Shown here one piece after another: positions 10,968 through 64,000 of a DNA stretch of 64,000 bases (position 1 is the first letter of the stretch; every line of letters begins with the position of its first letter). The translations under genes and the position numbers were made by a program. The DNA lies in contig CAYNHK010000001.1 of NCBI GenBank assembly GCA_964396875.1, forward strand, positions 4,546-68,545. The letters are read 5' to 3'. This stretch comes from an uncultured Acidobacteriota bacterium (lineage in GTDB: Bacteria > Acidobacteriota > Vicinamibacteria > Fen-336 > JAGNNV01). The notes below the pieces were generated by a model. The model had not been told where the DNA came from and searched no databases. It saw only the letters and a program-made list of their open reading frames with translations.

Positions 10968-11294
10968 CTACCTGCCGCGATCGATATGAAACACCTCCCG
11001 CAGTTCTCGGGATACGGGGGAGTGGTCGGGATTCGACGGCATGATCGCGCTCATATGCACCCACCACTTTCGGCAGACCTCCGTTGAAGCAATGGCGGCC
11101 CAACGCTCCTCGCTGTCAATCTCTACGTAGCCGAAGAGGTCCCGCGACGCATCGTCGATGAAGATCGAGTAGGTGATCACGCCATGCGAGATCAGCGCCT
11201 CCTCGAGCTCCTTCCAGATGGGCCGATGACGCCGTTCGTACTCGGCCTCCTGCCCTGCGTGGACCGACATCCGGAACGCCTTGCGAATGGCCAC
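10968..11294 (-). CDS. rhaM: L-rhamnose mutarotase
   Basis: Strong similarity to E. coli RhaM (IRKAF.M.V...EEYQRRH.PIWPELE...HG...Y.I.......LF...E..SEERW.A.AST.VC..WW..M...MP.NPD.SPVS.EL.EVF). GTG start at 11294 is preceded by GAGGAG with a 6-nt spacer; ORF 10968..11330 trimmed. Confidence 0.9.
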   Translation of the reverse strand: MAIRKAFRMSVHAGQEAEYERRHRPIWKELEEALISHGVITYSIFIDDASRDLFGYVEIDSEERWAAIASTEVCRKWWVHMSAIMPSNPDHSPVSRELREVFHIDRGR

Positions 11295-11319
11295 GATGTT
11301 CTCCTCTGAAGAAGACCGG

Positions 11320-13503: not shown

Positions 13504-13562
13504 ATCGTCTCCTTTGGTCAGTACGCCGCCAGCATAGGTTCGCGGCGGCCGGGAGGAACTGA

Positions 13563-13574
13563 CCAGAACTGGCG
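13563..13574. promoter_or_regulatory. CCAGAACTGGCG box, 60 nt upstream of the GH42 start codon
   Basis: Exact 12-mer, shared with the box at 22024-22035 and palindromically with the box at 26181-26198. Confidence 0.45.
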
Positions 13575-13597
13575 ATGCCGCGGGCACCGCGACGATG

Positions 13598-15798: not shown

Positions 15799-15837
15799 GC
15801 TTGCGAAGCTACCGCGTTTCGTGTCGGACCCGCGAAC

Positions 15838-15850
15838 CCACAGAACTGGC
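15838..15850. promoter_or_regulatory. Degenerate copy of the box (CACAGAACTGGCT) in the divergent promoter region between the hypothetical protein and the rhaD-like gene
   Basis: 77 nt upstream of GTG 15927 and 40 nt upstream of the minus-strand start at 15798. Confidence 0.3.
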
Positions 15851-15926
15851 TATGGAATCGGGCCCTCAAAAGTGCGAACCTTCGCTTCGAAGAAGATTGA
15901 CTTTCGAGACAAGACAGGGAGCCCAA

Positions 15927-18230: not shown

Positions 18231-21200
18231 CTAGAACAGGAACTTCGCCGCAACCTGCACGCGGCGCGCGTAGTTCGACTGGTTCGACGCCGAAATCTCG
18301 CCGAAGTTCGACGCTGTCGGGTTGACCACAGGCGCCGGGAAGTACGCGGAGTTGAGGGCGTTCACGACCTCAAAACGAAGCTGGAGCGAAGTCCGGCCCC
18401 GGAGCGACACGTTCTTGAGCAGCGACGCGTCGAGGCTCGCGATGTTGTCGCGGCGAACGTCCGAGAAACGCAGCGGCATGGTGCGGAGGTGACTGACCGG
18501 ACTCGCGTCGTTGGAGGTCGCGCCGTTCCTGACCGACGTGATGTTGGCGGTGTTGAACCACCGGAGCGTAGTCCGCTCGCTCTTCGGAAGCGCCAGGCTC
18601 TGGCCGTTCCAGAAACCGTTGTTCGTGAAGGCGATGGGGAAGCCGGTCTGATACGTATAGACGCCCTGGATCTGCCAGCCGCCGAGAATGGCCTCAAGCG
18701 CGCCCGAAGCGTCCGACAGGAACGTGCGGCCCTTGCCGAAGGGGACGTTCATGATCGTGCTGAGCGACAGACGATGCGTCGCGTCGAGGTCGGAGATGAC
18801 CCGGGTGGGTGACTCGTCCGAGGCGTTCAGATACTCGGTGGCCTGTTCCCACTTCGACAGGGTGTAGGACATGCCAACCGTGTACCCCTTCGAGAAGCGC
18901 TTCTGGACGCTGAACTGGCCCGAGTTGTACCAGGACTTGCCGTCGTTGTTGGTCGTCGTTATGTCGCCGTAGCCGGGGAACGGGCGGAGCAACTGCGTGC
19001 GGGACGTGGTGCCGCCGTTGATGCCCGCGCCCGGAACGAGACCTGCGAACGGATTCGCGACCGTGGCGCCCAGGAAGTTGTTGTTCGCGGTCATCGCCGC
19101 CGTACGCGAGTTGTCGGTGTTGAGGTACTGGCGCGGAAGGGTGTTGATGTTCCGGTTGATCTCGATGTCGTAGCCGTAGTTCCCGACGTACGCCGCCTCG
19201 ACGGTGAAGCCGCCGGGGAGTTCGCGCTGGATCCCCACCTGGTAGCGGAGCTGCTTCGAGACCTTCGGATCAGGATTGAAGAACGTGATCGCGTTCCCGA
19301 GAGAGGTCTGGCGACCCTGAGAATTCCCGATGGGCTCGAGAATCGGGAGGGAGGTCAACGAGCTGTCCCAACTGCGGGCGATCGGAGCTCCCGAGGGGAG
19401 GGTGACCGACGGGAAGGTCGTGGTCTGGGAGTAGCCGGGCTGAATGACGTCGCCGCGCCGCTGACCCAGGAAGCCCGCGAAGAGACCGATGCCGCCGCGG
19501 ATCGAAGTCTTCTCGTTGACCGAGTAGGCGAAACCGAAACGCGGAAGGAAGGTGTTCTTCGGTGTGTTGTAGAGACGCGGCGTGTCCTTTTCGACGAACA
19601 TCAACCCGCCCTTGACCGTGAGCTGAGACTTCAGCGCCTTGAGCGCCGGGTCGTTGAGCGAGGCATAACGCTGCTGCACCGTGCCTTCGATCGGCTGGGT
19701 GTAGCCGAAGTCAAAGTTGCTGACGCTCTTGCCGTTGCGTTCGGTGAGAGGCGTCTCGACCTCCCAGCGCACGCCGAGGTTCACGGTCAACTTGTCGTTC
19801 ACTCTCCAGTCATCGTGAAGGAAGATCCCGTAGGTCTTCGAATACTCGGAGTAGTCGGAAGGACGCGTGATTTCGGTCGTCGTGGGAAGCCCGAGGAGAA
19901 ATGCGGCGTAGGCCTGGATGCCGTTGAAGTCCGTTCCGGAAGCGCTGTTCTGGCGGGTGTAGGTGTTGTCGAACACAAACCGGCCGCTCGTGTTGTTGCC
20001 GGTGGAGAGGCTGTCCTCGCGGTAGATGCGCATCTCGACGCCGGTTTTGAGGGAGTGCGAGCGCAGTGCCTTGTTCAAGGTCGCGCTCACGGTGTGGGAG
20101 GTGACGGGGCGGAAGTCGTTGCCGAACGCCGTGCCCACCATCGTGTTCGCGGGGAACTCGATGCGCGGGAAGCGGCGCAGACCGTCGGACACGAGGCTGT
20201 TATACGAGCCCGGGAAACCCGCGTTGGTGAGGTCGTAGTCCGAGATGTATTCGGGGAGCTGCCCCGAGTTGCGCTCGAACCGGTTCCAGCCATAGCGCAC
20301 GTTCAGCACGGTCGTGTTGTTGATGGTGTGGACATCGTCCGCCACCATCTGGTACGAGATGAACTGGAAGTTGGTGGCCGTGAGTCCGGTGCCCAGGTAG
20401 TCGTTGTAGATCGAATCGCGCTTGTACCAGCTCCCGCGCACGAACGCCCGGTTGTTGTTCGAGACCCTCTGATCGAGCCGGAAGGTGGTGCTGTTGTAAT
20501 CCGCCGTCTCGGCCAGGGTCGCATCGAAGATATTGCCGTTGAGTCCGGACGTCTTGGGCAGCGAGTACAGCTCCAGGATCTTCCTCGCCGCGGGGCTGAT
20601 GCGGTTCGCCGGGATCACGTTCCCGGGGAAGGGCGTGCCCGTGAAGCCGCCGGCGCCGTTCGAGACGCGAGTCAGCGGGTCGTAGATCTGGACGTTGCCG
20701 AGGAAGGCGGAGAGGTCGCCGTTTCGCATGGCCGCGGTGGGAACCCAAACCGAGGAGCCGGCGTCGAAGCGCGGGCGGGTGTCCTTGATGTGCTCGAAAC
20801 CGATCGCGAAGAAGGTCCGTTCGCGGCCGTCGTAGACGCCGGGGATCTTGACGGGGCCGGTGAGGGTGAAACCGGGGCGGTTGTGCGAGCTCTTGACCCG
20901 CTCCTGGCCGCGCGCCTTGCCGAAGAAGTCGTTCGCACCGAGGGTCGAGGGCTCGGCGAAGAAATAGACCGACCCGTGAAGGCTATTGGTTCCCGACTTG
21001 ATGGTGATGCTCGTGACGCCGCCTTCCGTGTTGCCGAACTGCGCGTCGAAGGTCGCGGTCTGGACCCGGAACTCCTGCACGAGGTCGGAGGGGGGCACGT
21101 AGGTCGCGATGACTTCGTTCGCATTCGCGGTCGCGGTGCTGGGCGATCCGTCGATGAGCAGGTCGGAGCGGTTGCCGCGCGTGCCGTCGTAGGCGTAGCC

Positions 21201-21764
21201 GATGATGTGGGTCGGCTCGTACGGACGGTCGAGACGCTGGTCGCCGGTGTGCGACAAACCGGTGGCCAGGCCCATGATCTTGTAGGGATCTCCGTGAATC
21301 AGGGGAAGCTCCGCGATTCGTTTCGCGTCGAGGGTGAGACCCATGTTCCCGTCGTTGGTATTGATCGGCGCGCCCTCAGCCAGGACCGTCACCGTTTCCT
21401 CGGCTCCACCCAATTCGAGAATGGCCGCGATGTTGCGGGTCTCGTTCATCGAAAGCGGGATCTTGTCCTGAATGTACTTCTTGAAGCCCTGCATTTCGAC
21501 GGTGACCAGGTAGGTCCCGGGGATCAGGTAGTTGACGGTAAACATGCCCTCGCTGTTTGTCACCGTGGAGACGGTGGTGTTTCTCTGGGTGTCCGTAACC
21601 TTGACATCGGCGCCGGGCAGGACTCCCCTGGTCGGGTCCGTGACGCGGCCGGTGATTCTTCCTCGGGCTTCCTGGGCCATCAGGGCGGCCGGAGCGAAGG
21701 CGACTATCAGAAACAAGATCAGAGCGGTGCGGTGCGAACGTAGGGGAGTCGGGTTCGATTTCAT
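18231..21764 (-). CDS. TonB-dependent outer-membrane receptor with N-terminal carboxypeptidase-regulatory-like domain (glycan-uptake candidate)
   Basis: 1177 aa with a signal peptide, a CarbopepD_reg-like segment (GRITGRVTDPTRGVLPGADVKVTD), plug and barrel regions, and a C-terminal aromatic F. Architecture is typical of Acidobacteria/Gemmatimonadetes. Confidence 0.9.
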   Translation of the reverse strand: MKSNPTPLRSHRTALILFLIVAFAPAALMAQEARGRITGRVTDPTRGVLPGADVKVTDTQRNTTVSTVTNSEGMFTVNYLIPGTYLVTVEMQGFKKYIQDKIPLSMNETRNIAAILELGGAEETVTVLAEGAPINTNDGNMGLTLDAKRIAELPLIHGDPYKIMGLATGLSHTGDQRLDRPYEPTHIIGYAYDGTRGNRSDLLIDGSPSTATANANEVIATYVPPSDLVQEFRVQTATFDAQFGNTEGGVTSITIKSGTNSLHGSVYFFAEPSTLGANDFFGKARGQERVKSSHNRPGFTLTGPVKIPGVYDGRERTFFAIGFEHIKDTRPRFDAGSSVWVPTAAMRNGDLSAFLGNVQIYDPLTRVSNGAGGFTGTPFPGNVIPANRISPAARKILELYSLPKTSGLNGNIFDATLAETADYNSTTFRLDQRVSNNNRAFVRGSWYKRDSIYNDYLGTGLTATNFQFISYQMVADDVHTINNTTVLNVRYGWNRFERNSGQLPEYISDYDLTNAGFPGSYNSLVSDGLRRFPRIEFPANTMVGTAFGNDFRPVTSHTVSATLNKALRSHSLKTGVEMRIYREDSLSTGNNTSGRFVFDNTYTRQNSASGTDFNGIQAYAAFLLGLPTTTEITRPSDYSEYSKTYGIFLHDDWRVNDKLTVNLGVRWEVETPLTERNGKSVSNFDFGYTQPIEGTVQQRYASLNDPALKALKSQLTVKGGLMFVEKDTPRLYNTPKNTFLPRFGFAYSVNEKTSIRGGIGLFAGFLGQRRGDVIQPGYSQTTTFPSVTLPSGAPIARSWDSSLTSLPILEPIGNSQGRQTSLGNAITFFNPDPKVSKQLRYQVGIQRELPGGFTVEAAYVGNYGYDIEINRNINTLPRQYLNTDNSRTAAMTANNNFLGATVANPFAGLVPGAGINGGTTSRTQLLRPFPGYGDITTTNNDGKSWYNSGQFSVQKRFSKGYTVGMSYTLSKWEQATEYLNASDESPTRVISDLDATHRLSLSTIMNVPFGKGRTFLSDASGALEAILGGWQIQGVYTYQTGFPIAFTNNGFWNGQSLALPKSERTTLRWFNTANITSVRNGATSNDASPVSHLRTMPLRFSDVRRDNIASLDASLLKNVSLRGRTSLQLRFEVVNALNSAYFPAPVVNPTASNFGEISASNQSNYARRVQVAAKFLF

Positions 21765-21928: not shown

Positions 21929-22021
21929 GCCTTGTATTACCATTTGTCCGTCAGGAGATCCGCCATCAGCGGAGCGCATAACCGCCATAATTCCCCGGTT
22001 TTCGGGTTCAATGGCGAGCAT

Positions 22022-22035
22022 CCCCAGAACTGGCG
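22022..22035. promoter_or_regulatory. CCCCAGAACTGGCG box upstream (about 95 bp) of the receptor promoter -35 element
   Basis: Flanked by a partial extended inverted repeat, GCGAGCA...TGCTCG. Confidence 0.45.
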
Positions 22036-22167
22036 AGTGCTCGTGAAATGGTCTTCCCGGGTCGAATGGTCGGACCATTGAAGGCACGGAGGTTGTCCGG
22101 AGGGCAAACTGGGTGACCACCTGGCCGTGTCCTTGCGGGGGCACGCTGCGCATGCCCGTAACCAGGG

Positions 22168-26180: not shown

Positions 26181-26198
26181 GTCGCCAGTTCTGGCGAC
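26181..26198. promoter_or_regulatory. Perfect 8-2-8 palindrome GTCGCCAG-TT-CTGGCGAC in the divergent promoter region between the MocA oxidoreductase and GH78
   Basis: 89 nt upstream of the GH78 ATG and 93 nt upstream of the oxidoreductase start. Confidence 0.5.
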
Positions 26199-34416: not shown

Positions 34417-34478
34417 ACCCTACTCTCGCGGCCGCCCGACTCCTTCACAATCCCCAGAAATGGGGAGGCCGTGGCGCA

Positions 34479-40363: not shown

Positions 40364-40406
40364 GCGGTGAGCAAGGCTACCCTCGATCGACCCCGTCGCG
40401 GCCAAT

Positions 40407-40420
40407 GGCCAGTTCTGGGG
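40407..40420. promoter_or_regulatory. GGCCAG-TT-CTGGGG box, 44 nt upstream of the galT start
   Basis: The minus strand reads CCCCAGAACTGGCC, which matches the receptor-leader box. Confidence 0.4.
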
Positions 40421-40445
40421 AGTTGCTGACTCGGAGCCAGGGTCG

Positions 40446-41798
40446 CTAGCGGGCCAGCAAGGCAGCCGGAATATCAACGACCACCAGGTCCAGGCTCTTC
40501 CCATCCGTCAACCGGCCCGACTGAAGGAGGACACGCCTGCCGTCGGGGCTGAAGATCGGATGGGTGTGGTCCGGAATCATCTTGTGGTCGGTGGTGAGGA
40601 GAATGCGCTCGCCAGTTCTCCGGTCGATCAGGTACACGTTCCCCTTGAACGAATCGGCGACTGCCCACCGCCCGTCGGGTGAACCGTTGCAGTGCCAGAG
40701 GCCCCCGGTGCGGCGCTCGCCCATGTCCTCCTCGATCTGGGCCAGGATCGACATGTGGTTGGTACGCAGGTTGATGACCGCGACCCCCGACGGCTTCTCG
40801 CGCAGGTAGGGCAGATGGCCCATCAGATTGAACATCACCTCGTCCCTCGTGGCGAAGGTCTCATGAGTGACCCACTCGTCGGGGGACTCTGCGTAGAGCG
40901 GGCGATGGCCCGTGCCATCGGCCCGCACCACCCACATCCGCTGCACCGCGTCCCCCGTGGTTTCGTGGCAGTACAGGATCTCCCCGGGAACCCAGGGGTT
41001 CGTCTGCAGGTGCCCCAGCCGCATCGGGATATCGATGACTGTCCCGATCTCGCCCGTCTTCATGTCGATGCTTCTTATCCCGCTTCTCCCGCGGCCCGCC
41101 GCTTCGAAACGCAGGCGCGACGTCTCCCGGTCCTGATCCGGATCCATGTTCCGGTCGTCGATGACCCGTCGTCCCGCGGGCGGCGCCGCCGCGTGCGACC
41201 TGGACGCTGGCGCCGGACGCGAAGGCACCTCCGGCTCCAGATTGATGCCGAAGTAAACCCGGCTTTCGTCGGAGTCGAGTGCGATCCCGCCGCCTCGCAT
41301 GTTGTCCGGAAGTGTAGCCACGACCCGCTCGTAGGTTGCCGCGGGTCGAGGCGTCCCCGCCATCGCGTCGGCGATGAGCGGATCAAGGTTCAGTTCAATC
41401 AGCTGTCGCGGCCGGTCCCGCATGAAGAACGCCTTGTTCGTCTTGTGCGACAGAGTCACATTGCTCGCGTTCACGTCGCCCGCGGTCATCTGGATGATGT
41501 CGCCGGTCTGTTCGTGGACCAGGAAAGCCTGCGGACCGCTGCCATCGCGAGAGCTGCGAAGGAGAATCCACTTGCCGTCGGCTGTCCAGGTCGGATCGGT
41601 CTGGTAGGGCTTCGAGTCATTCACCGGATCTGTGGTGAGGAATGTCAGATTCAAGCCGGTCACCGCGTCGACGATGATTCGCTTCTCAGGCGGAAACCGC
41701 CGACCGACGTGCGATGCGTCGGCCTCCGCCGCGGCCAGGAGGCTCAGAACACCGAGTGCAGCCAGGCCACGCCGGAAGGGGCCGGCCTCTCGCATCAA
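40446..41798 (-). CDS. Secreted TolB-like beta-propeller protein, probable oligogalacturonide lyase family (PF14583-like)
   Basis: Signal peptide and repeated TolB-type blades (ADGKWILLRSSRDGSGPQAFLV, HCNGSPDGRWAV, FSPDGRRVLL). The pectin-locus context fits. Confidence 0.5.
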   Translation of the reverse strand: MMREAGPFRRGLAALGVLSLLAAAEADASHVGRRFPPEKRIIVDAVTGLNLTFLTTDPVNDSKPYQTDPTWTADGKWILLRSSRDGSGPQAFLVHEQTGDIIQMTAGDVNASNVTLSHKTNKAFFMRDRPRQLIELNLDPLIADAMAGTPRPAATYERVVATLPDNMRGGGIALDSDESRVYFGINLEPEVPSRPAPASRSHAAAPPAGRRVIDDRNMDPDQDRETSRLRFEAAGRGRSGIRSIDMKTGEIGTVIDIPMRLGHLQTNPWVPGEILYCHETTGDAVQRMWVVRADGTGHRPLYAESPDEWVTHETFATRDEVMFNLMGHLPYLREKPSGVAVINLRTNHMSILAQIEEDMGERRTGGLWHCNGSPDGRWAVADSFKGNVYLIDRRTGERILLTTDHKMIPDHTHPIFSPDGRRVLLQSGRLTDGKSLDLVVVDIPAALLAR

Positions 41799-42502
41799 GC
41801 CTCCGCGTTTGGCGGAGTCGGTGTCTTCGGTGGCGAAGCGAGCGGGTTGCCGCCGCCGCGGGTTGCGGCGCCTAGAGTTCTCGTCAGGTGAACGGCGGCC
41901 GCGCGCGTGCGCGTGTTCACCTGGAGCTTTTCGTAGATGTGCCGGACATGCGAATGCACGGTGTCGTAGCCGATCGCGAGTTCCTCCGCGATCTCGCGGT
42001 ACAAGTAGCCCTTCGAAAGAAGCTCGAGGACTTCCTGCTCACGAGGGGTCAGCGTTTCGGAGCTGGCGATCGGCGCCGCCGGAACCGCGCGGAAGGACTG
42101 CACGACTTTGCGCGCGATGTGGCTCGACATCGGCGAGCCGCCGGCCTTGACCTCCTTGATGCTCGATATGAGGGCGGGGCCCGGCGTCCGCTTCAGGAGA
42201 TAGCCGCTGGCGCCCGCGGCGAGGGCATTGAAGATCAGATCGTTGTCCTGATACACGGTGAGCATCATGACCTGGGTGTCGGGAAGCGATACCTTCAGCC
42301 GGCGCACGCACTCGACCCCGTCGATTCCCGGGAGGTTGATGTCCATGAGCACCACCTCAGGCTTCACGCCGGGCAACACCTGAAGCGCCTCTTCACCGGA
42401 CCCATGCTCGCTTACGCAGCGGAGACCGGGGGCTCGTTCCAGCAGGCGAACGAGGCTCGCTCGCACTCGCTTGTCGTCTTCGACCACGGCGACGCTGATC
42501 AT
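41795..42502 (-). CDS. Two-component response regulator, NarL/FixJ (LuxR-type HTH) family
   Basis: Receiver domain (VVEDD...VVLMDINLPGIDG) plus a C-terminal LuxR HTH (TPREQEVLELLSKGYLYREIAEEL). Its stop overlaps the downstream start (ATGA). Confidence 0.9.
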   Translation of the reverse strand: MISVAVVEDDKRVRASLVRLLERAPGLRCVSEHGSGEEALQVLPGVKPEVVLMDINLPGIDGVECVRRLKVSLPDTQVMMLTVYQDNDLIFNALAAGASGYLLKRTPGPALISSIKEVKAGGSPMSSHIARKVVQSFRAVPAAPIASSETLTPREQEVLELLSKGYLYREIAEELAIGYDTVHSHVRHIYEKLQVNTRTRAAAVHLTRTLGAATRGGGNPLASPPKTPTPPNAEA

Positions 42503-42577
42503 CGAGACACCGGAGAAATCACCGCGGGAGCTTAGGGCGGCGCGAGGCTCGGCGCCAATAGCCAGTTCGTGGGAGTC

Positions 42578-45500
42578 TCAGGTCCTGGTCTGGGTCAGGC
42601 GAACCCGGGTGCCTCCGGCGACTCCATTCGAGATCTGGAATCGCGCCCCGATCGAGAGCATGCGTTCATCGATATTGCGGAGTCCCCGTCCTCCCTGAAC
42701 GCGGAGCGGTGTCTTCGTCGGGGCGGCGCTTCGCCCGCATCCATCGTCCTGCACTTCGATTTCGAACTCGGTGGGCGACAGCGTGAGGCTCAATCGCACC
42801 TCCGAAGCGCCCGCGTGTTTGACCACGTTGTTCAAGGCTTCCTTGACCGCGAGAAACAGGTTGTGCCGGGCCTCGGCGCGCAAAGGGATCGCGGGAATAG
42901 TCTCGGGCGCTTCGAGTCGGCAGGCGATTCCCGCGGTGGCGAGGTACTCCTGGGCAAAGTGAATGATGTAGTCCCACAGACTGTCGAGCGTGTCTTCGCG
43001 CGGGTTGACCGCCCAGACAATCTCATCCATGGCGCGGGTGAGTTCCACCGCGGTCTCGCCGATCTGTTCGGCGTGGGCCTTCGCCTCCTGCGGATTGTCG
43101 TCGCGGAGCAACTCGCTCAGGAGGCTGATCTGGGTCAGGCCCGCGCCGAGGTCGTCGTGGATGTCCTTCGCGATTCGCGTGCGGTCGCGCTCGACCGCGT
43201 GTTGCTGCTCGAGTCTCGCCAGGTTTGTGCGAAGCGTGCGCGTGGAAAGGTGGCGCGCGATGGAAGCCGCGCCCGCGAGGGAGAACAGCAGGAGAAGGCT
43301 CTTGAAGCCCACGGTCTCCCAGAAGTGGGGCAGCACCTTGAGAGGCAGGGCCGACTCCCGCGCGCTCCAGACACCGTCGCTGTTCCGTGCGATCACTTCG
43401 AAGCGATAGTCGCCAGGCCGGAGGTAGCTGTACTGGGCCGTGCGTCGGTCCGTCGGAGGCGACCAGTCCTTCTCGAGGCCGATCAGGCGGTAGCGGAAGC
43501 GGACGGCGTCGGGGGCAGCGAGGCTGAGGCCGGTGTAGCGGAACTCAACCTCGCGGCTTCCCGCAGGAACGACCACCGCGTCGTTCGCCCCTGGTTCCTC
43601 ATTTCTGATCCGATCCACCCACACCTCTTCGACCACGCTTGCGGGCGGTACTTCGTTGTTGCGAAGGTCTCTCGGATTCACCGAGACCGCTCCGCCCGTG
43701 GTCGCGAACCACAGCCGCCCTTCCCGGCCGCGCCATGAGACGGGTTGGTATCCCGAGCACTCGAGCGGGGGAACGCCGTCGGCTCGGCCATAGGTCGAAG
43801 ACACGAGCGATGTCTCCTTCATGTCGGCGACATCCGCGAGGCTCTTCTGCGAGATTCGCAGGAGACCCTCGCGGGAGCCCACCCACAGATGTCCCTGGTC
43901 GTCGTCCAGGATCTGGCAGACCACGGCGCTCGTGAGGCCCTCGCGCGTCGTGTAACGGAAAACGCGACCCCCGGAAAGCCGCAGCAGGCCGCCCTGGTAG
44001 GTGCCCACCCACACCACACCGCCCGATTGTGCCCGCAGCGACCAGATCTGATGAGACGCCCCGGCCTCGCCCAGAGAGACCCGTTCGAAGCGACCCTCGG
44101 CGTAGCGGTGAAGCGTCCCGTCGCCGCCGCCGATCCAGATCGCGCCGTTCTCGTCCTCGGCGAGCGCGCGCACTTCCGTGACCGTCATGCCGTCGGCCGG
44201 CCCGAAATGTTCGACCTTGCCATTCGTCCTCCGCGAGAGCCCGTCCCTTCTCCCCATCCAAAGCCGGCCGGAGCGATCGACGAGCAGGGCTTTTATGCCG
44301 TGGACCGCGGGGGAGGTGGGGCGCGCTACTCCGTTCTCGAGGACCCAGAGGTCTTCATGGTCGGCGCTCATCCACAACCGATTGCCCTCGGGGAAAAGCG
44401 ATAGCACGAAAGGCCGGGTGGCGGGAGGCGGCAGAGCGAAGGACTGCAACCCGCGGTCGCGGAACCGGGCAAGGCCGGCCCCCGCGCTGCCGATCCAGAC
44501 CGAACCCTGGCGGTCCTCGGCCACGGAGACCGTGGCGTATGAAGATCCCTGCTTCGGAACGGTGACGAGGTCGAATCTCCTCTCGCGGATTCGGGCCAGG
44601 CCGCCGCGGTCGACACTCAGCCAGAGGTTCGCCTCGCGATCCTTGAACATGCTCACGACCCGTTCGCTCGCGAAACCCTGGGCGGCTCCGAAGTGCCGGC
44701 GGTTCCCCTGGTCGTCGACATGAAGCAGTCCGCGACCGCCGTGCGCGAACCACAGTCCGCCTCGCCGGTCTCCGATCGGGAGTCTCGGCTGGAGGGCGTC
44801 CTCCGGCAGGTATCGAGAGGGCCCGAGGTCCCGGATCCACTGGCCGTCGCGTCCCTGGAGCAGGCGCTCGTTGACGATCGCCCAGAATGAATCGTCCTCC
44901 GCGAAATGCAGGAAGCCGACGTCGACCCTTTGGGAACCCGCACCCACAGGCATCGGAGAAAACTCCGTTCCGGCCCAGCGCAGGATCCCGGCGTTGGTTG
45001 CAACGACCACGCGATCCTCGCGATCCGTGGTGAGGTATTGGATCAAGCGTCCCGCCGGTGCTGACGGCAGGGACACCTCTTCGGTACGGCCGTCGACGAT
45101 CCGCCAGAGCCTCTCGTCGGTCGACCGGATCCACAATTCGCCGGAGCGCGTCGCGCAAAACGTCGGGCTGAAGACGACGTCCTGGGGCCTGATGGTCCCC
45201 CAGGGACCCGCGCGTCCTGCGTCGAGGGTCCGTCGCAGGACCGACCCGGACTGAAGCACGAAGACCTGCTCGCGATCGGTTGACGACGCGAGCCATACAC
45301 CGCTCTCCACGCGTTCGCGGGCCGCCCACTCGGCGGTGAAGACGCCGTTGCGCCACGACGTGAGGGAGCCATCGTAGGTATTGATCCACAGCGTTCCGGC
45401 GCGGTCCGTGAACAGACGTTCGACGCGCGTGTGACCGAGGGCGCGCGTGTTCGAAGAATCGAATCGAACGAAGCGGACGCCGTCGAAGCGGGCGAGGCCG

Positions 45501-45673
45501 TCATACCCGCCGACCCACAGGTACCCCTCCGGAGTCTGGGCAATGGCGGTCGCCGAGTTGCCCGGCAGGCCTCTCGACGCGTCCCAGAAATCGATGACGT
45601 AGTCGGCCGCGCGCGCCTCCATGCCAGCGAGGGCCAGAAGGCCGACACACAGAAAGCGCAAAGGCGACATCAT
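42578..45673 (-). CDS. Sensor histidine kinase with periplasmic two-component-regulator-propeller / Y_Y_Y domains (hybrid-type glycan sensor without receiver domain)
   Basis: Signal peptide MMSPLRFLCVGLLALAG. Repeated propeller motifs (GLWFA, GLW, VWVGT), one TM segment before a HisKA_3 block (RIAKDIHDDLG), then HATPase_c. ATG 45673; ORF runs to 45808. Confidence 0.85.
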   Translation of the reverse strand: MMSPLRFLCVGLLALAGMEARAADYVIDFWDASRGLPGNSATAIAQTPEGYLWVGGYDGLARFDGVRFVRFDSSNTRALGHTRVERLFTDRAGTLWINTYDGSLTSWRNGVFTAEWAARERVESGVWLASSTDREQVFVLQSGSVLRRTLDAGRAGPWGTIRPQDVVFSPTFCATRSGELWIRSTDERLWRIVDGRTEEVSLPSAPAGRLIQYLTTDREDRVVVATNAGILRWAGTEFSPMPVGAGSQRVDVGFLHFAEDDSFWAIVNERLLQGRDGQWIRDLGPSRYLPEDALQPRLPIGDRRGGLWFAHGGRGLLHVDDQGNRRHFGAAQGFASERVVSMFKDREANLWLSVDRGGLARIRERRFDLVTVPKQGSSYATVSVAEDRQGSVWIGSAGAGLARFRDRGLQSFALPPPATRPFVLSLFPEGNRLWMSADHEDLWVLENGVARPTSPAVHGIKALLVDRSGRLWMGRRDGLSRRTNGKVEHFGPADGMTVTEVRALAEDENGAIWIGGGDGTLHRYAEGRFERVSLGEAGASHQIWSLRAQSGGVVWVGTYQGGLLRLSGGRVFRYTTREGLTSAVVCQILDDDQGHLWVGSREGLLRISQKSLADVADMKETSLVSSTYGRADGVPPLECSGYQPVSWRGREGRLWFATTGGAVSVNPRDLRNNEVPPASVVEEVWVDRIRNEEPGANDAVVVPAGSREVEFRYTGLSLAAPDAVRFRYRLIGLEKDWSPPTDRRTAQYSYLRPGDYRFEVIARNSDGVWSARESALPLKVLPHFWETVGFKSLLLLFSLAGAASIARHLSTRTLRTNLARLEQQHAVERDRTRIAKDIHDDLGAGLTQISLLSELLRDDNPQEAKAHAEQIGETAVELTRAMDEIVWAVNPREDTLDSLWDYIIHFAQEYLATAGIACRLEAPETIPAIPLRAEARHNLFLAVKEALNNVVKHAGASEVRLSLTLSPTEFEIEVQDDGCGRSAAPTKTPLRVQGGRGLRNIDERMLSIGARFQISNGVAGGTRVRLTQTRT

Positions 45674-45817
45674 CGGACGAGGCTCGCGGCCATCAGGCCG
45701 GGGATGACTGCGACGAGATATCGGCTGTCCTTCACGTGCGGAGGACGCTATCAAACAGCGGCCTCGCCAGAAGTGTGGAGGGCGGCAGGTCACGCGTTGT
45801 GGTAACAACGAGACCAG

Positions 45818-47794
45818 ATGTCCTCCTTCGTCTCACGAAGTCTGGTTCTGTGCTTCCTTCCGGCGACGATCCTTCTGCCGTGCGCCGCTCCAACTCTCGA
45901 GGCCGCGGACAAGGAGACCGCCCGTCAGATGGAGAAGCTCGGCCGGGGTGTGGTCGCCATTCGGCAGGATGAAGGACGAGCCTTCGTGGCCTGGCGGCTG
46001 CTGGGCACTGACCCCGAGGGCGTGGGCTTCAACGTGTATCGAGCCACGGAGACGGGGAAGGCGAAACGCCTCAACCCGAAGCCGCTTCTGGGCCCGACGT
46101 TCTTCATCGACGAGACCGCCGAAGCCGGACGCCAGCACACCTACACGGTTCGCGCCGTGGTCAAGGGCCGTGAACAAACGTCAGGCCGAGGCTTCACGCT
46201 TGCGGCCGCGCACGAACCCCTCCCCTATCTCTCGATTCCCCTGAAGACGCCTCAGAGTTACACCCCGAACGACGGCTCGGCCGGGGACCTCGACGGCGAC
46301 GGCGAATACGAGATCGTGCTGCATCAGGCTGGCCGCGGCCGGGACAACTCCCGCCCCGGTGTAACGGATCCGCCGATCCTGCAGGCCTACAAACTCGACG
46401 GCACGCTGCTGTGGACGATCAACCTCGGTCGCAACATTCGTGAAGGCGCGCACTACACCCAGTTCATGGTCTACGACCTCGACGGCGATGGCCGCGCGGA
46501 GGTTGCCTGCAAGACCGCGGATGGCAGTGTCGACGGGCTGGGCAAGGTCATCGGAGATCCGAACGCAGTGTGGGTGAATCCCGAGGGAACCCGTCTCACC
46601 CTTCGCGGCCGCGATGGCGTCGAGCGCGCGCAGGACGTATCGGGCTACGTCCTGCGAGGCCCCGAATACCTGACCGTCTTCGACGGCCTTACCGGAGGGG
46701 CCCTTGCCACAACTGCATACGTTCCACCGCGCCACCCGGCAACGCACAGCCCGACCGTGGATCAGCTCGAGGAACTCTGGGGAGACGGCTGGGGCACTCG
46801 GGTCGACCGTTTTCTCGCCGCGGTCGCGTATCTCGACGGAGAGCGGCCGAGCCTCGTCATGGCGCGCGGCTACTACACGCGATCGGTCCTCGCGGCCTGG
46901 AACTTCCGCGGCGGGAAACTGACGCACGTCTGGACGTTCGACAGTGATGATAAGACGCCGGGAAACCACGACTACCGAGGCCAGGGGAACCACAACCTGA
47001 GTGTCGCGGATGTGGATGGCGACGGCCGCGACGAGATCGTCTACGGCGCCGCCGCGATCGACGACAACGGGAAGGGCCTCTATTCGACCGGCTGGGGCCA
47101 CGGCGATGCGCTCCACGTTTCCGATCTCGATCCCGACCGGCCGGGCCTGGAGGTGTTCAACATCCAGGAGCGCTTCGACGACGCGGGGGCGAACTTTCGC
47201 GATGCGCGCACCGGACGCGAGATCTGGAAGAAGGCCTCGATCAAGGCGGCGACCGAGGGCGGCGACGCGGGGGAGGGCCCGGGCCGCGGCAACTCTTTCA
47301 ACATCGATCCCCGTCAGCGGGGCAACGAATCCTGGGTGGCGGGTGCTGAATTGCGCGGCCTGTGGAACGCGAAGGGCGAGAAGATCTCCGATGAGCAGCC
47401 GCAGGCGGTCAACTTCGCGGTGTGGTGGGACGGCGACCTTCAGCGTGAATTGCTCGACCGCAACGTGATTTCGAAATGGAACTGGACGAAGGAGACGCTC
47501 GAGCCGCTCCTTGTAGCTGAATGCTGCGCGTCGAACAACGGGACGAAGGCGACGCCGGTGCTGAGCGCCGACCTTTTCGGCGATTGGCGAGAGGAGGTCA
47601 TCTGGCGCACCAAGGACGACAAGGAACTCCGGATCTTCACCACCACGATCCCGACCCCGCACCGACTGGTGTCCCTGATGCAGGACCCGCAATACCGCCT
47701 CGCGGTGGCCTGGCAGAACGTGGCCTACAACCAGCCGCCGCATCCAGGCTTCTACCTCGGGGACGAAGCGCCCCTGCCGCCACGCCCCCGATAG
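45818..47794 (+). CDS. PL11 rhamnogalacturonan lyase (YesW/YesX-like)
   Basis: Signal peptide, the N-terminal block ARQMEKLGRGVVAIRQDEGRAFVAWRLLGTDP typical of PL11, an FN3-like insert, and calcium-binding DLDGDG repeats of an 8-bladed propeller. Confidence 0.85.
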   Translation: MSSFVSRSLVLCFLPATILLPCAAPTLEAADKETARQMEKLGRGVVAIRQDEGRAFVAWRLLGTDPEGVGFNVYRATETGKAKRLNPKPLLGPTFFIDETAEAGRQHTYTVRAVVKGREQTSGRGFTLAAAHEPLPYLSIPLKTPQSYTPNDGSAGDLDGDGEYEIVLHQAGRGRDNSRPGVTDPPILQAYKLDGTLLWTINLGRNIREGAHYTQFMVYDLDGDGRAEVACKTADGSVDGLGKVIGDPNAVWVNPEGTRLTLRGRDGVERAQDVSGYVLRGPEYLTVFDGLTGGALATTAYVPPRHPATHSPTVDQLEELWGDGWGTRVDRFLAAVAYLDGERPSLVMARGYYTRSVLAAWNFRGGKLTHVWTFDSDDKTPGNHDYRGQGNHNLSVADVDGDGRDEIVYGAAAIDDNGKGLYSTGWGHGDALHVSDLDPDRPGLEVFNIQERFDDAGANFRDARTGREIWKKASIKAATEGGDAGEGPGRGNSFNIDPRQRGNESWVAGAELRGLWNAKGEKISDEQPQAVNFAVWWDGDLQRELLDRNVISKWNWTKETLEPLLVAECCASNNGTKATPVLSADLFGDWREEVIWRTKDDKELRIFTTTIPTPHRLVSLMQDPQYRLAVAWQNVAYNQPPHPGFYLGDEAPLPPRPR

Positions 47795-53831: not shown

Positions 53832-54221
53832 TCACGGATCCTCGAAGCGCCAGCTGGGCCGGGGACTCGGCATCGCTGCGGCCTCGGCGCCGAGTGCGGT
53901 CAGCAGATCGCCGAGCCGCTCTCGTTCCGCCGCGAGGTCGAAGCCGAAGTAGCGCGCGGGGTAGGGCTCGAAACGAGCGAGAGCTCGCGCGAAAGTCCGG
54001 GTGGCGCCGGTGTGATTCCCTCGCTCGAGGTGAAGGAACCCCACGCTGACCTGGATGAGTGCCTGAAAGAAGTCCCGGGACGGCCCGCGAAGACCCAGCC
54101 AAATCTCCTCGAGCGTCTCGTGGCACTGGAAGTAGTGGCCGCGGTTGAACTGCTCCACGGCGCGGTCGAAGGCGAGCCGCTGCTCGCTCGTCAGTTCCGG
54201 CCCGGCCAGGAGGCGCATCAT
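53832..54221 (-). CDS. DUF309 domain protein
   Basis: FNRGHYFQCHETLEEIW motif. Confidence 0.7.
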   Translation of the reverse strand: MMRLLAGPELTSEQRLAFDRAVEQFNRGHYFQCHETLEEIWLGLRGPSRDFFQALIQVSVGFLHLERGNHTGATRTFARALARFEPYPARYFGFDLAAERERLGDLLTALGAEAAAMPSPRPSWRFEDP

Positions 54222-60671: not shown

Positions 60672-62333
60672 TCAGGGCACGACCTTGACGATGAGTCGAC
60701 GCGAAGCGGCGTCGTAGAACCAGGTGCTGGTCGAGGACTCGTGCACCTCGTCCACGGACTCGGCCTCGGGCGGCCCCCCGGTCTGATTGATCAGCACGGT
60801 CTGGCCGTTGATCCTGACCGACGCAGGACGGACGGCGATACGGCCCACCCGGTAGAGCAGCGGCCATCCGGGAGGCGCGTCGGCGCTCAAAGTCAGTCGC
60901 TCGCCTTCCATGACGGAGCGGAAGGTCGTCCACGATCCGGTGTGGTCGTTGAAGTAACGAAATGACGATGTCCCGCTCGGGTAGACGAGAACAGTGAGGG
61001 CACCTGCGGACTCGCGGGCGCCGTGGCCGGTGTAGTCCCTTTCGACCTCCATGGGAATGATCGCGCCGAGCCGGAGGAACACCGGCTCACGGCCCACGGG
61101 GGCCGCGTGCTCGACCAGGTTTCCGGAAACGACCCGATCTTCGTCCCAGTAGTCGATCCACTGCCCGGCGGGAAGTTGAATGTCGATCGTGGGCGTCTTC
61201 GACGTCACCATGGCGACAAAAATCTCCTCGCCGACCCGCATCGCATTCGGCCCGGGCCCGGGCTGGATGATCGGAGACTCCGGCTGCTCGTGCATCCTGC
61301 GCGCGTAGCTCAGGAAGTAAGGCACGAGCTGGCGGTGGAGCCAGGCGTAGTAACGATACGCGCGCAGAAGGTCCGGGCTGTACTCGGAGCGCCAGGGATC
61401 CGAGTTCCCGAAAGGCGTGTGGGCCATGATCGGCTGAAAAGCGCCCCAGTGAATCCGCCGATGGAAGGTCTCTTCGTCCGGAGCGCGTCGGCTCAGGTAG
61501 TCATACCCGGTCAGTTCATTGAGCGGAGCGGGGATCAGCCGCGCCTTCTCGAAGACGCGCGAGAGCGCATCGCGCAGTCCGTCGAAGTCGTTCGGGACGT
61601 CGCCCACGTAGGCCACGTTCGCGAAGCGTGACAGCGCCGCGTCCGTCGTGGAAGGCTCCCGGCTTTGGTGCGACTTGGCCACGACCTCGAAATCATCGGG
61701 GGCGACCGAGCGCATGAAGTCGGTCGCGCGCTGCAGCTCCTGATCCGACGAACCATCGTCCAGATAGAAACCGAGCAGCGATCCTCCAAGCTGCTGGCGG
61801 ACGCGCTCGTACTGATCGCGTTCATGGCATCCGCCCCAGAAGTGGACGAGCGCGCGGACGTGTTCCGAGGCCAGCCGGTCGACGACCTCCGGACCGAGAT
61901 TCCACGAACAGCAGTCCTCTCCCTCACAGGCTCCGCTCGTCCGCGAATCCCGCTCCGACCACCCGCCGCCATCGAAGAGGTAAAGGCTGACCGGGATGTC
62001 GTTGGCGCGCAGCTCATCCATCTGGCAGGAGAACTCCTCGGCGAGCGTCTCCGCGGACCCGCAGCCGCAATCGCCGTTTGACGGACAGCCGCTGCCCCAC
62101 CACGGACCGAGGATCGCGCGGTGAAGGGCGTGGTCCCGGGTCGACTGCGCGGCCGCGCCGCCCTTGGGGGTGGGAGTCTGGACAGATGACGGGGCCGCTG
62201 GCGTCATCGCGGTTCGGCCGCCGCAATCCGAAGTCGAGACCGCGAGCGTGAGCACGAGCAGGGGAATGACCGCCCCGGCCATGAGCCGACGCCGGGAGCT
62301 CCCGGTTCTTTCCGGCCGACTTTCCTGCCCCAC
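60672..62333 (-). CDS. Putative secreted TIM-barrel glycoside hydrolase with GH31-like C-terminal beta-sandwich; Cys-rich N-terminal segment
   Basis: Tat-like N-terminus (SSRRRLMAGAVIPLL); alternative start ATG 62282. The C-terminal pattern WIDYWDEDRV...PVFLRLGAIIP resembles GH31 distal domains. Family assignment is uncertain. Confidence 0.45.
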   Translation of the reverse strand: MGQESRPERTGSSRRRLMAGAVIPLLVLTLAVSTSDCGGRTAMTPAAPSSVQTPTPKGGAAAQSTRDHALHRAILGPWWGSGCPSNGDCGCGSAETLAEEFSCQMDELRANDIPVSLYLFDGGGWSERDSRTSGACEGEDCCSWNLGPEVVDRLASEHVRALVHFWGGCHERDQYERVRQQLGGSLLGFYLDDGSSDQELQRATDFMRSVAPDDFEVVAKSHQSREPSTTDAALSRFANVAYVGDVPNDFDGLRDALSRVFEKARLIPAPLNELTGYDYLSRRAPDEETFHRRIHWGAFQPIMAHTPFGNSDPWRSEYSPDLLRAYRYYAWLHRQLVPYFLSYARRMHEQPESPIIQPGPGPNAMRVGEEIFVAMVTSKTPTIDIQLPAGQWIDYWDEDRVVSGNLVEHAAPVGREPVFLRLGAIIPMEVERDYTGHGARESAGALTVLVYPSGTSSFRYFNDHTGSWTTFRSVMEGERLTLSADAPPGWPLLYRVGRIAVRPASVRINGQTVLINQTGGPPEAESVDEVHESSTSTWFYDAASRRLIVKVVP

Positions 62334-62347
62334 GAGCCGGAAGGCTA

Positions 62348-64000
62348 CTACGGGACCGGTTTCACCACCGTGACGACCACACTCGATGGGTACTTCACCG
62401 AGTGGTGAAGCGTGTTCCGGGCGATGACGCCCGAGGACTCGTCGTAGTTATTGCCGCCGGTGTTGAGGTTGCGATCGAAGCGCGGGAAGTTGCTGCTCGA
62501 GACTTCGACGCGCAGGCGGTGCCCCGGCTTGAAGTAGTTGCTGGTGTTGAGGGGCTGGAGCGTCACCTTGTAGATCTCGTTCTTCTCCATCCAGGCAAGG
62601 CCCTTGTCATACCCGAGGCGGTAACGCATGCGCTGGATCGATTCGTCGAGGTTGAAGGCGCGGCCCTGAGGATCCACGTCGATCACCTTCACGGTGAAGT
62701 CGGTGTCCTTCGCGTCCGAGGAAACGTAGAGCGTTGGCGTGATCGGACCGCTCAGTTCGAGTCCCTCCTTGAACGGCTCCGAAGTGAAGACCAGGATGTC
62801 GGCACGGGCTTCCATCTTTCTCTGATCGAACGATCCCGCCTGCACCGCGTTCCCGGTACAGCAGACATTGCCCCCATAAGAGGGCACGGGATTCATCGGG
62901 TCGTAGACGAACGTGTCCGGTTTGTTGACCGCGGGTGGCGCCGCCACAAGCGTTCCGTCGCCGTTAAGTGTGTTCGCCTTGCCTCCACTCGACAGATAGA
63001 AGGTCATCGGAGCGGCTCCTGTGGGCGGCCAGGTTTGAGACGTCTGCCACTTGTTGCTGCCCATCGTGAAGTACGTGACCTTCGGCAGCTTGTCGATGCG
63101 GGTGTCTTTGTCGCCCTTGAGGAACTTGTCGAAGAAGCCGTAGACGACCTCGTTGTAGTCGAGCCGCGCGTCGCCCATGCTGCGCTCGCCGACGATGGTG
63201 TTCTCGGTGGCGCGGGTGAAGGCGCAGTGCACCACCGGAGCGATGACCGCCCACTGCTGATTGGCGATGTCGCCCTTCGCGTTCCTCCGGACGTGATTGA
63301 ACATCTCGAGGTTCGGCCCCGCCGAGACGTCGTACCACGAGATGAACCACAGGCCCGGCACATCGAGCTTCATGTTGTCGTGCCAGAGCCCGCCCTTGTA
63401 CCAGGCGGGATCGTTGGGTGCGCGCTGGATCATGCGGCCGCCGGTGGGGACAGGCATGGCGTCCGCAAAGATTCCCCGGGGTCCGTCGATGGCCTTGTAG
63501 ATGTCCTGAACCGGGAGGTGGCGCAGAGCCTTGTCCCAGTCGACGGAGGGAAGCTGCTGCGCGAGGTCGAACGACTTCGACGCGCGGATCAGATCTTCAC
63601 GCGACGTGTCGGGCGGGAACATGGGGCGTACCTGGTTCTGCTCACCGTACAGCCAGGCGATGAAGAGCATCTGCACCGCGCCGCCGCGATACCAGTTGCC
63701 CTGTTCGTAGTAGGGGCCGACCCGGCCCACACCCGCGCCGAAGCCCTGAACATTCATCGCCGCAAACGCAGGGTGACCTTGCGCCGCCACCGCCATCTGC
63801 CACTCGGCGGTCGAGGAACAACCGGTGGTGCCGACCTTGCCGTTCGACCACGGCTGACTCTTCATCCATTCGAGTGTGTCGACGCCGTCGGTGGTGGGCG
63901 GTCCGAGGATGTCGTAGTTCCCTTCGGAGAAGAAGTGGCCGCGCTCGTTCTGGACCACGTAGGCGTAGCCGCGCTTCACTGCGGCGAGTGCGGTGGTCAT
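62348..64000 (-). CDS. CocE/NonD family hydrolase (second copy), N-terminus beyond window edge
   Basis: ORF open to the window end. The C-terminal region is homologous in layout to the 51825..53804 product (SSSNFPRFD block present in both). Confidence 0.75.

Follow-up and report, generated by a model that had tools for sequence, protein, structure and literature searches.

Hybrid two-component systems (HTCS) of Bacteroides end in a fused output domain, an AraC-type helix-turn-helix (HTH). Their periplasmic sensor domain senses oligosaccharides; BT4178 regulates a polysaccharide utilization locus (PUL) for rhamnogalacturonan-I (RG-I), and different Bacteroides HTCS sense different pectic fragments (PMC3243724). 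Published domain lists of HTCS include HisKA (PF00512) and a fused receiver (BguR preprint, 2026; PMC3243724). Here we analyze a stretch of 64,000 nucleotides from an uncultured Acidobacteriota bacterium (contig CAYNHK010000001.1), hereafter the window, in which genes for a sensor kinase, a response regulator and a third protein stand within a locus for RG-I utilization. As judged from domain content, kinase and regulator make up a classical NarL-class two-component system with an HTCS-type sensor, and not a split hybrid. The pair is very probably the pathway-specific regulator of the RG-I (pectin) locus, and there is a good likelihood that it would act through a 16-bp palindromic box repeated along the locus.

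Two other groups of systems are close. BguR, described in a 2026 preprint, has the same propeller and Y_Y_Y periplasmic sensor, a GerE (PF00196) output and a conserved operator motif in the spacers beside its regulator gene. Its sensor is fused directly to GerE without kinase, receiver or phosphorelay, whereas the pair described here has a HisKA_3 kinase and a separate receiver (REC)-GerE protein; BguR also belongs to another phylum and serves another substrate (beta-glucan). On the other hand, NarX/NarL, UhpB/UhpA and DesK/DesR have the same cytoplasmic module as the pair (HisKA_3 H-box, HATPase_c, REC and GerE, adjacent genes), but their sensors are a four-helix bundle, membrane-embedded or absent, instead of the double propeller of about 760 amino acids (aa) found here. 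The HTCS sensor module is thus reused with at least three output designs, which are the hybrid HisKA-REC-AraC, the one-component GerE, and the classical HisKA_3 with REC-GerE.

The sensor kinase and its response regulator

An earlier reading made from the letters alone (the sequence-only reading) had placed the three genes on the reverse strand with a 75-nt gap between kinase and regulator. A scan of open reading frames (ORFs) agrees with these coordinates (Table 1) and with the gap, and the public gene calls of the source contig have the same lengths (kinase 1031, regulator 235 and third gene 449 aa). A longer kinase ORF initiated at TTG extends to 45808, and is implausible because the signal peptide starts directly at the ATG.

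The kinase has a signal peptide at about residues 1-23 and a periplasmic region of about 760 residues (~24-785; hydropathy and sequence), which consists of two seven-bladed beta-propellers and Y_Y_Y. A single transmembrane helix (~788-806) is followed directly by the long helix of the dimerization and histidine phosphotransfer (DHp) domain, as seen in hydropathy and an AlphaFold2 (AF2) model. All kinase domains scored above their Pfam cut-offs: Reg_prop with 94 bits, Y_Y_Y with 54 bits (720-780), HisKA_3 (PF07730) with 40.5 bits (831-893), and HATPase_c with 36.6 bits (938-1027). With GerE in the regulator, these are the five families that the sequence-only reading had expected. No Pfam match to Response_reg or an HTH was found in the kinase, and HATPase_c ends the protein (1031 aa). 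The phosphoacceptor H839 lies in the H-box RIAKDIHDDLG and is invariant among 61 homologues, and the sequence also shows the N-box EALNNVVKHA and the G-boxes DDGCG and GGRGLRN.

The relatives of the two halves of the kinase differ. Among proteins of known structure, phmmer matched the sensor best to BT4663 of Bacteroides thetaiotaomicron (4A2L, E 2e-40), then to BT3049 and BT4673, and the sequence relatives of the cytoplasmic part are DesK, VraS and DosT. When the AF2 model built from the 61 homologues (predicted local distance difference test score, pLDDT, 83.9) was searched with Foldseek, the 15 best matches were HTCS sensors with BT4663, BT3049 and BT4673 on top, with E from 2e-43 to 2e-33 and a template-modeling (TM) score up to 0.68; the next fold follows at E 1e-17. 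These three sensors (4A2L/4A2M, 3V9F and 3OTT/3VA6, respectively) are therefore the best matches in both sequence and fold, and by both measures the kinase sensor is a true homologue of the Bacteroides HTCS oligosaccharide-binding sensor, as had been proposed from the propeller and Y_Y_Y architecture.

The adjacent regulator is a NarL/LuxR-class protein. Its translation contains the receiver residues E8/D9/D10, D54, T82 and K104, and its GerE recognition helix is YDTVHSHVRHIYEKL by helix alignment. In NCBIfam, the regulator has partial matches to NarL, MadR, MctR and UhpA, the best with 133 bits compared with cut-offs of 250-300, and the best equivalog match of the kinase has 73.5 bits compared with a cut-off of 700. 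The pair thus falls below all cut-offs of the named equivalogs NarX/NarL, UhpB/UhpA, MctS/MctR and MadS/MadR.

The likeness to HTCS comprises the Reg_prop double propeller, the membrane-proximal Y_Y_Y, the single transmembrane helix running straight into the kinase, and the associated glycan-degrading gene cluster including a TonB-dependent transporter. The differences lie elsewhere. The kinase here is of the HisKA_3 and not the HisKA (PF00512) type, without fused receiver or DNA-binding domain; the output is GerE/LuxR on a separate protein, not an AraC-type HTH; and the RG-I locus lacks a SusD-like gene, its import being completed by ABC transporters, in an Acidobacteriota host. Because the DHp domain is HisKA_3 and REC-GerE is a separate protein, the assignment is to the NarL class, HTCS sharing the sensor module only. 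Accordingly, of the earlier description as a split Bacteroides hybrid, the homologous sensor, the kinase without receiver and the separate adjacent regulator stand, but the split itself does not, since HisKA_3 and GerE are found in place of HisKA, receiver and AraC. AbfS/AbfR of Cellvibrio japonicus was considered as a split version of this sensor and ruled out, since the AbfS sensor is PAS-like (PDB 2VA0; PMC11078701).

The architecture is very common and is routinely annotated automatically. A search with the kinase gave at least 1,895 proteins with E of 1e-10 or lower; of the 120 matches listed, the overwhelming majority have full length and share the domain set of the kinase, and automatic JGI or NCBI names are attached to several. 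Two peptide patterns gave at least 600 matches in species-representative genomes, mostly of Verrucomicrobiota and Acidobacteriota, of which 542 were confirmed; the best pattern match (91%) is in a metagenome-assembled genome of an uncultured Acidobacteriota bacterium. A regulator homologue adjoins the kinase in all but a handful of 87 loci. No published characterization of a system with propeller/Y_Y_Y, HisKA_3 and NarL-type regulator was found in a literature coverage that was incomplete. The sequence-only reading had called such a system uncharacterized; this agrees with the absence of such a paper, although the architecture itself is far from rare. The system is uncharacterized but very widespread, each component being of known type.

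Seven orthologous loci have gene tables (L001, L002, L084, L003, L085, L086 and L087; kinase identity 48-85%), all in Acidobacteriota. In all seven, the pair stands amid RG-I-type genes, which are PL11, GH105/88, GH106, CE12/GH28, GH2, GH43, a TonB-dependent transporter and a PL22-like gene.

The palindromic box and its predicted reader

A box CGCCAG-WW-CTGGCG (W is A or T) had been noted before. The palindrome is real, but the exact 14-mer CGCCAGWWCTGGCG has one site in the window (26183) and one more with one mismatch (22022). As this definition with its one or two sites is too strict, it was replaced by a 16-bp inverted repeat of two heptamers separated by 2 bp (7-2-7), and the box is read here as TCGCCAG-WW-CTGGCGA. 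The 16-mer TCGCCAGWWCTGGCGA with up to 3 mismatches has 8 sites in the window compared with 1.72 expected, and none of 100 shuffles reaches 8. Its core, CCAGWWCTGG, has 5 sites compared with 0.21 expected. With a position weight matrix (PWM) trained on 41 sites of other loci, 8 places in the window reach at least 14 bits compared with 0.18 expected, although the training sites had been found with the consensus derived from the window, so that the PWM test is not fully independent of the window counts.

All eight boxes stand at gene boundaries of the rhamnogalacturonan locus, and none lies beyond 45.8 kb, in the part of the window without carbohydrate-active enzymes (CAZymes). Six are wholly intergenic, intergenic DNA being 5.3% of the window (P about 6e-7). 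Of the other two, one lies within the last 57 nt of a gene and one (1828) at the first codons of a gene, covering codons 3-8 of a divergent secreted protein of unassigned family (ATG 1820, forward strand). We strongly infer that boxes precede essentially every transcription unit of the RG-I locus: PL11; the kinase operon; galT, ABC importer and galK; GH43 and CE12/GH28; GH78 and GH105; the GFO oxidoreductase; the TonB-dependent transporter; GH42; the second ABC importer; and GH105.

Boxes are retained in relatives. The box at 45764 lies within a block of about 60 nt that is near-identical in the orthologous locus of 85% kinase identity (L001) while the flanks diverge, and that locus also has a box in its galK/GH43 intergenic region. 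The boxes flank the pair in 7/7 orthologous loci with gene tables. In one of them (L086), the perfect box GTCGCCAGAACTGGCGAC lies between kinase and regulator and between transporter and kinase, with two further copies between GH106 and GH88.

Box positions were compared in 75 loci of Acidobacteriota and Verrucomicrobiota, counted per locus without correction for shared ancestry. In 23 of the 75 loci, the first 150 nt past the kinase stop contain a box (up to 3 mismatches), almost always at one offset, compared with 1/75 for a control within the kinase gene. Just after the regulator gene, a box is found in 21/68 loci (control, 0/75). The box also varies with the regulator: it is present in 26/33 loci where the recognition helix is TVH, but in 3/38 loci with other helices (TVN, TVR, TVV), an association with Fisher p = 8e-10, not corrected for phylogeny. 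When 7-mers after the kinase stop were counted free of any pattern, CTGGCGA(TTGGC) gave the top words in TVH loci only.

The 7-2-7 arrangement is the classic geometry for dimers of the NarL family. The predicted operator here has inverted heptamers in this geometry as in NarL, with a heptamer sequence unlike the NarL consensus. From position, helix co-variation and geometry, the link between regulator and box is strongly supported, and a regulator dimer is predicted to bind TCGCCAG-WW-CTGGCGA, which is strongly supported and not proven. Comparative genomics thus favors the earlier proposal that this regulator is the candidate reader of the box.

Related loci have a strong box just past the kinase stop; its counterpart by position in the window is a degenerate box (42559), which is followed by TTGGCG. 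This weak box ahead of the regulator gene suggests autoregulation. Behind the box at this place, in related loci (CTGGCGATTGGC) and in the window (CTGGCTATTGGCG, ~42548-42574), stands a conserved additional TTGGC, which may be a third half-site.

Past the kinase stop, loci without the TVH helix are enriched in other words, TTGATGAC and TCATCAA (9/38 compared with 1/29 loci), TVN being the largest class among these loci. Loci with the TVN helix (e.g., L037, L044, L052, L053 and L063) have other palindromes after the kinase stop, TCGTGATTATTGATGA, TCATCAAAACTGACGA and TCGTCAGTTTTGACGA. The association of TVN-helix regulators with an alternative palindrome, TCGTCA-N4-TGACGA, was not significant (8/24 versus 12/47, p = 0.58). 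There are hints of a His-to-Asn specificity switch in the recognition helix.

Table 1 Genes of the regulatory cluster and candidate boxes in the window
Feature	Position	Strand	Basis or score	Context
Sensor histidine kinase, 1031 aa, ATG start	42578-45673	-	ORF, Pfam, hydropathy, PDB sequence matches, AF2 and Foldseek	
NarL/LuxR-class response regulator, 235 aa	41795-42502	-	Pfam Response_reg 83.9 bits, GerE 55.8 bits	
PL22 (oligogalacturonate-lyase)-fold protein, 449 aa from ATG	40446-41795	-	Pfam, phmmer, AF2 and Foldseek	
PL11 rhamnogalacturonan lyase	45818-47794	+	Pfam RGL11_C 695 bits, RGI_lyase 76 bits	Divergent from kinase
Box TCGCCAGAAGTGTGGA	45764-45779		3 mismatches, 16.5 bits	144-nt kinase/PL11 divergent spacer; 39 nt to PL11 ATG, 91 nt to kinase ATG
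Degenerate box TCCCACGAACTGGCTA	42559-42574	-	7.7 bits	4 nt past kinase stop, 57 nt ahead of regulator ATG
Box TGGCCAGTTCTGGGGA	40406-40421		15.9 bits	Between PL22-like stop and galT, 43 nt upstream of galT ATG
Box TCCCCAGAAATGGGGA	34451-34466		20.7 bits	Between galK and GH43, 38 nt upstream of GH43 ATG
Perfect box TCGCCAGTTCTGGCGA	26182-26197		25.1 bits	Divergent GFO-oxidoreductase/GH78 rhamnosidase spacer; 94 and 90 nt from the two ATGs
Box TCCCCAGAACTGGCGA	22021-22036		23.5 bits	257 nt upstream of TonB-dependent transporter gene
Box TGACCAGAACTGGCGA	13560-13575		18.3 bits	57 nt upstream of GH42 start (GTG 13503)
Box TCGCCAGGATTGGCGA	6366-6381		16.2 bits	Last 57 nt of GH2; 53 nt upstream of second ABC importer ATPase (ATG 6434)
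Box TAACCAGTTCTGGCGA	1828-1843		22.4 bits	62 nt upstream of GH105 (Pfam GH88; ATG 1766, -)

Proposed mechanism, its alternatives and the third gene

We conceive that extracellular PL11 and other enzymes would release pectic oligosaccharides, which would enter the periplasm via the TonB-dependent transporter and bind the propeller sensor. Ligand binding would shift the kinase/phosphatase balance, and the phosphorylated regulator would activate the locus. This course of events is drawn by analogy only, whereas the pair as regulator of the RG-I locus is, taken as a whole, a likely explanation. PL11 would probably be both a member of the regulon and a producer of the inducing oligosaccharides. A pectic ligand is proposed because of the locus context and the Bacteroides precedent (PMC3243724); the chances are about even that the ligand is an oligosaccharide derived from RG-I rather than another pectic fragment or sugar. 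The distances between boxes and ATGs (38-94 nt, and 257 nt for the transporter) fit activation or repression, and we lean toward an activator rather than a repressor.

Several points weigh against this model, beside the dependence of the PWM on the window and the shared ancestry of the loci compared. First, sequence and analogy are the source of every statement on ligand, phosphotransfer, DNA binding and sign of regulation. Second, identity of the sensor to any HTCS of known ligand is as low as 15-19%; BT4663 is the heparin/heparan sulphate sensor. Third, the two boxes that lie closest to the genes of the system itself (45764 and 42559) are among the weakest in the window. Fourth, several boxes are only 38-62 nt from start codons, which would suit repression equally. 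Fifth, the window covers 64 kb of the genome, and a second regulator elsewhere is possible. Finally, the subfamily is not intrinsically pectin-specific, as the same helix and box occur beside PATR genes in Verrucomicrobiota. Because these Verrucomicrobial relatives carry the same operator beside non-pectin genes, ligand identity is not transferable by homology.

In two such Verrucomicrobial loci (4257-11219 of L025 and 11308-17748 of L069), where recognition helix and box are the same as in the window, the regulator gene is followed by a gene for a 2,100-2,300-aa protein with matches in Pfam only to PATR (autotransporter-associated) repeats, and more boxes lie downstream of this giant gene. 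Pectin enzymes were looked for in the Verrucomicrobial loci sharing the box, and this gene follows the regulator instead.

The ligand leaves most room for another reading. The locus could be regulated as proposed while the sensor binds a side-chain fragment (beta-1,4-galactan or arabinan oligosaccharides), an oligogalacturonide or the product of the PL22-like protein, which we regard as possible but unlikely. It would fit a regulon that mixes backbone enzymes (PL11, GH105, GH28/CE12 and GH78) with side-chain and sugar genes (GH42, GH2, GH43, galT/galK and two sugar ABC importers), the tight linkage of the PL22-fold enzyme to the pair in the closest orthologues, and the differences among Bacteroides HTCS in the pectic fragment sensed (PMC3243724). 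However, PL11 is the divergent neighbor and the RG-I backbone enzymes are constant in the orthologous loci, which speaks for an RG-I-derived ligand without being decisive.

It is improbable that the boxes are read by another transcription factor outside the window (e.g., of LacI, GntR or IclR type), with the pair in control of another target or of its own expression only. In favor of this reading, many families of regulators typically have palindromes of 14-16 bp, the window covers 64 kb of a genome, and the weakest boxes are those closest to the genes of the pair. On the other hand, such a factor would leave unexplained why, in two phyla, the box keeps a fixed place just past the kinase stop and another just past the regulator gene, and why its presence co-varies with the regulator's recognition helix. 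Furthermore, no other regulator is conserved in the orthologous loci, and no transcription factor besides the pair was found among the window ORFs scanned (three ORFs outside the locus, 53832-54221, 60672-62333 and 62348-64000, were unscanned). Regulation by the pair is thus preferred.

The third gene encodes, as judged from sequence and model, a periplasmic protein of the PL22 fold. Pfam gave Pectate_lyase22 (PF14583) with 50.5 bits (cut-off 30) and PD40, and phmmer against the PDB gave the oligogalacturonate lyases (Ogl) of Yersinia enterocolitica (3PE7) and Vibrio (VPA0088, 3C5M) in three colinear pieces. The AF2 model (pLDDT 82.6) is a seven-bladed propeller, for which Foldseek ranked 3PE7 and 3C5M on top (E 3e-24, TM score 0.80-0.82), the next fold following at 3e-12 (TolB and peptidase propellers). 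Residues H311, H410 and H412 (numbered from the ATG) are invariant in 28 homologues, and align to what we take to be the catalytic His242 and the Mn ligands His353/His355 of the Yersinia enzyme (YeOGL). Local phmmer alignments gave no clear counterparts for His287 and Gln350 of YeOGL, presumably further Mn2+-binding residues. The N-terminus MREAGPFRRGLAALGVLSLLAAAEADA is a non-lipoprotein signal peptide with a modeled helix (6-24) ahead of the propeller, and a disordered insert of ~30-50 aa lies at about residues 186-236. The family has at least 1,420 members, mostly in Opitutaceae and Acidobacteriota.

Characterized Ogl enzymes are cytoplasmic and act on di- and oligogalacturonides taken up by the cell. 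The third-gene product shares their propeller fold, PF14583 and aligned histidines at ~20% identity, but differs in its signal peptide (periplasmic), its disordered insert, and its linkage to a TonB-dependent transporter or regulator instead of kdu/kdg. Most likely, it is a periplasmic lyase that acts on uronate oligosaccharides after their import; the inducer may be among its products or its substrates.

Alternatively, the PL22-fold protein could be non-enzymatic, a periplasmic ligand-binding co-sensor presenting the signal to the kinase. Its secretion, unlike the cytoplasmic Ogl, its family-specific disordered insert, and its translational coupling to the regulator or the TonB-dependent transporter in every close orthologous locus would suit such a role. 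With histidines aligned to the presumed catalytic base and two Mn ligands of YeOGL invariant in the homologues, and with a fold match specific to Ogl, there is little chance of it, and we keep to the lyase.

In L002 (14260-19148), L003 (13951-18808) and L084 (14160-19047), whose kinase identity is 61-64%, the PL22-like gene comes directly behind the TonB-dependent transporter gene and overlaps or adjoins the stop of the latter. Its place in the window, in L001 and in L004 is behind the regulator instead, and the window transporter (18231-21764) is 20 kb away. The pairing with the transporter gene suggests a functional unit of transporter and periplasmic enzyme.

Lastly, the palindromes might be RNA-level or structural elements such as 3′ stem-loops, terminators or repetitive extragenic palindromic (REP)-like repeats (6-bp stem and tetraloop), as UCGCCA-GUUC-UGGCGA could fold into a hairpin and often lies just after a stop codon in related loci, but this is very improbable, and the 3′-hairpin/terminator reading is excluded because boxes occur in divergent promoter regions without a gene 3′ end (26182 and 45764; the transporter/kinase and GH106/GH88 spacers of L086), while the variants keep sequence and not pairing (TCACCAG...CTGGCGA and TCCCCAG...CTGGCGA break it) and neither a T-tract terminator nor an Rfam match was detected.

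Regulation by the pair through the boxes makes a testable model, with a known oligosaccharide-binding fold, a defined partner, a 16-bp operator, and eight strong and one weak candidate sites. Beyond the sequence-only reading, this analysis provides a corrected class, an operator definition with cross-phylum conservation and a nine-site regulon map, along with evidence that the third gene encodes a secreted PL22-fold protein, whose family keeps histidines aligned to the presumed catalytic base and two Mn ligands of Ogl. Its importance is limited in that the component types are known, the family is abundant in databases and the model is computational.

Among the bacteria that degrade plant polymers in soil, Acidobacteriota and Verrucomicrobiota belong to the most abundant. 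No described regulator for CAZyme loci of these phyla was found in the literature, coverage of which was incomplete. Tentatively, TVH regulator, operator and propeller-sensor kinase might form an ancient cross-phylum glycan-response module of Acidobacteriota and Verrucomicrobiota, a counterpart of the Bacteroidota HTCS for PUL-like loci, which here would serve a complete RG-I pathway with TonB-dependent transporter and ABC importers, a secreted PL22-fold enzyme shaping the inducer. If so, whole glycan regulons could be read from metagenomes via the operator, which could serve for regulon prediction in uncultured genomes.

Neighboring genes and minor features

The RG-I locus spans ~0.4 to 47.8 kb of the window by ORFs and Pfam. 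As had been described, the trio is divergent from PL11 and heads a co-directional string, which reads galT, ABC permease, binding protein, ATPase, galK, GH43 and CE12/GH28; ORF and Pfam context agrees. The locus has PL11, galT, a sugar ABC importer, galK, GH43 and GDSL(CE12)/GH28. Further genes are GH105 (Pfam GH88), GH78, the GFO oxidoreductase and two additional GH43. The TonB-dependent transporter (18231-21764, reverse strand) matches CarboxypepD_reg and OMP_b-brl_4 in Pfam. The remainder consists of an aldolase/short-chain dehydrogenase fusion, GH42, rhaM, a second sugar ABC importer, GH2 and a second GH105. The ATG of galT at 40363 was deduced from the profile match and the gene call of L001.

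The third gene is translationally coupled to the regulator gene. Its ORF runs from a TTG (40446-41798, 450 aa) or from the ATG at 41795 that the public call uses (449 aa). An ATGA overlap had been reported at this junction, but the sequence there is GCTTGATGCG, which gives TTGA (4 nt) with the TTG start or TGATG (1 nt) with the ATG start.

Scans of the window against Rfam and for tRNA gave no matches. Between 40200 and 45950, a sigma-70 promoter scan found no promoter-like site, and an intrinsic-terminator scan found one terminator-like site, within the kinase gene. Because this terminator count is below the shuffle expectation and no promoter-like site was found, these scans do not inform operon structure.

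A mini-ORF (45670-45735, reverse strand) of 21 codons, VKDSRYLVAVIPGLMAASLVR and a stop, overlaps the kinase ATG with its stop codon (ATGA). It corresponds to the first ~13 and last 8 residues of a 194-aa protein with an AGA-YXIM_GBD domain, whose gene (2691-3275) sits between PL11 and the kinase in L001, the locus of 85% identity. The mini-ORF looks like an in-frame deletion remnant.

Two large ORFs in the pectin locus have no Pfam match, 1820-4006 (forward strand; ~730 aa with a signal peptide, with a box over codons 3-8) and 14107-15798 (reverse strand; 563 aa). Both are candidates for undescribed pectin-active proteins. The GH42 beta-galactosidase (11320-13503, reverse strand) probably starts at GTG 13503, which is preceded by AAAGGAG. 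It carries a twin-arginine signal (RRRFLS), and would thus be exported folded to the periplasm. The second sugar ABC importer (6434-10833, forward strand) lies beside the gene for the L-rhamnose mutarotase rhaM (10968-11330, reverse strand), and the fusion of class-II aldolase and short-chain dehydrogenase occupies 15801-18098 (forward strand). This context suggests rhamnose uptake and catabolism within the box-controlled locus.

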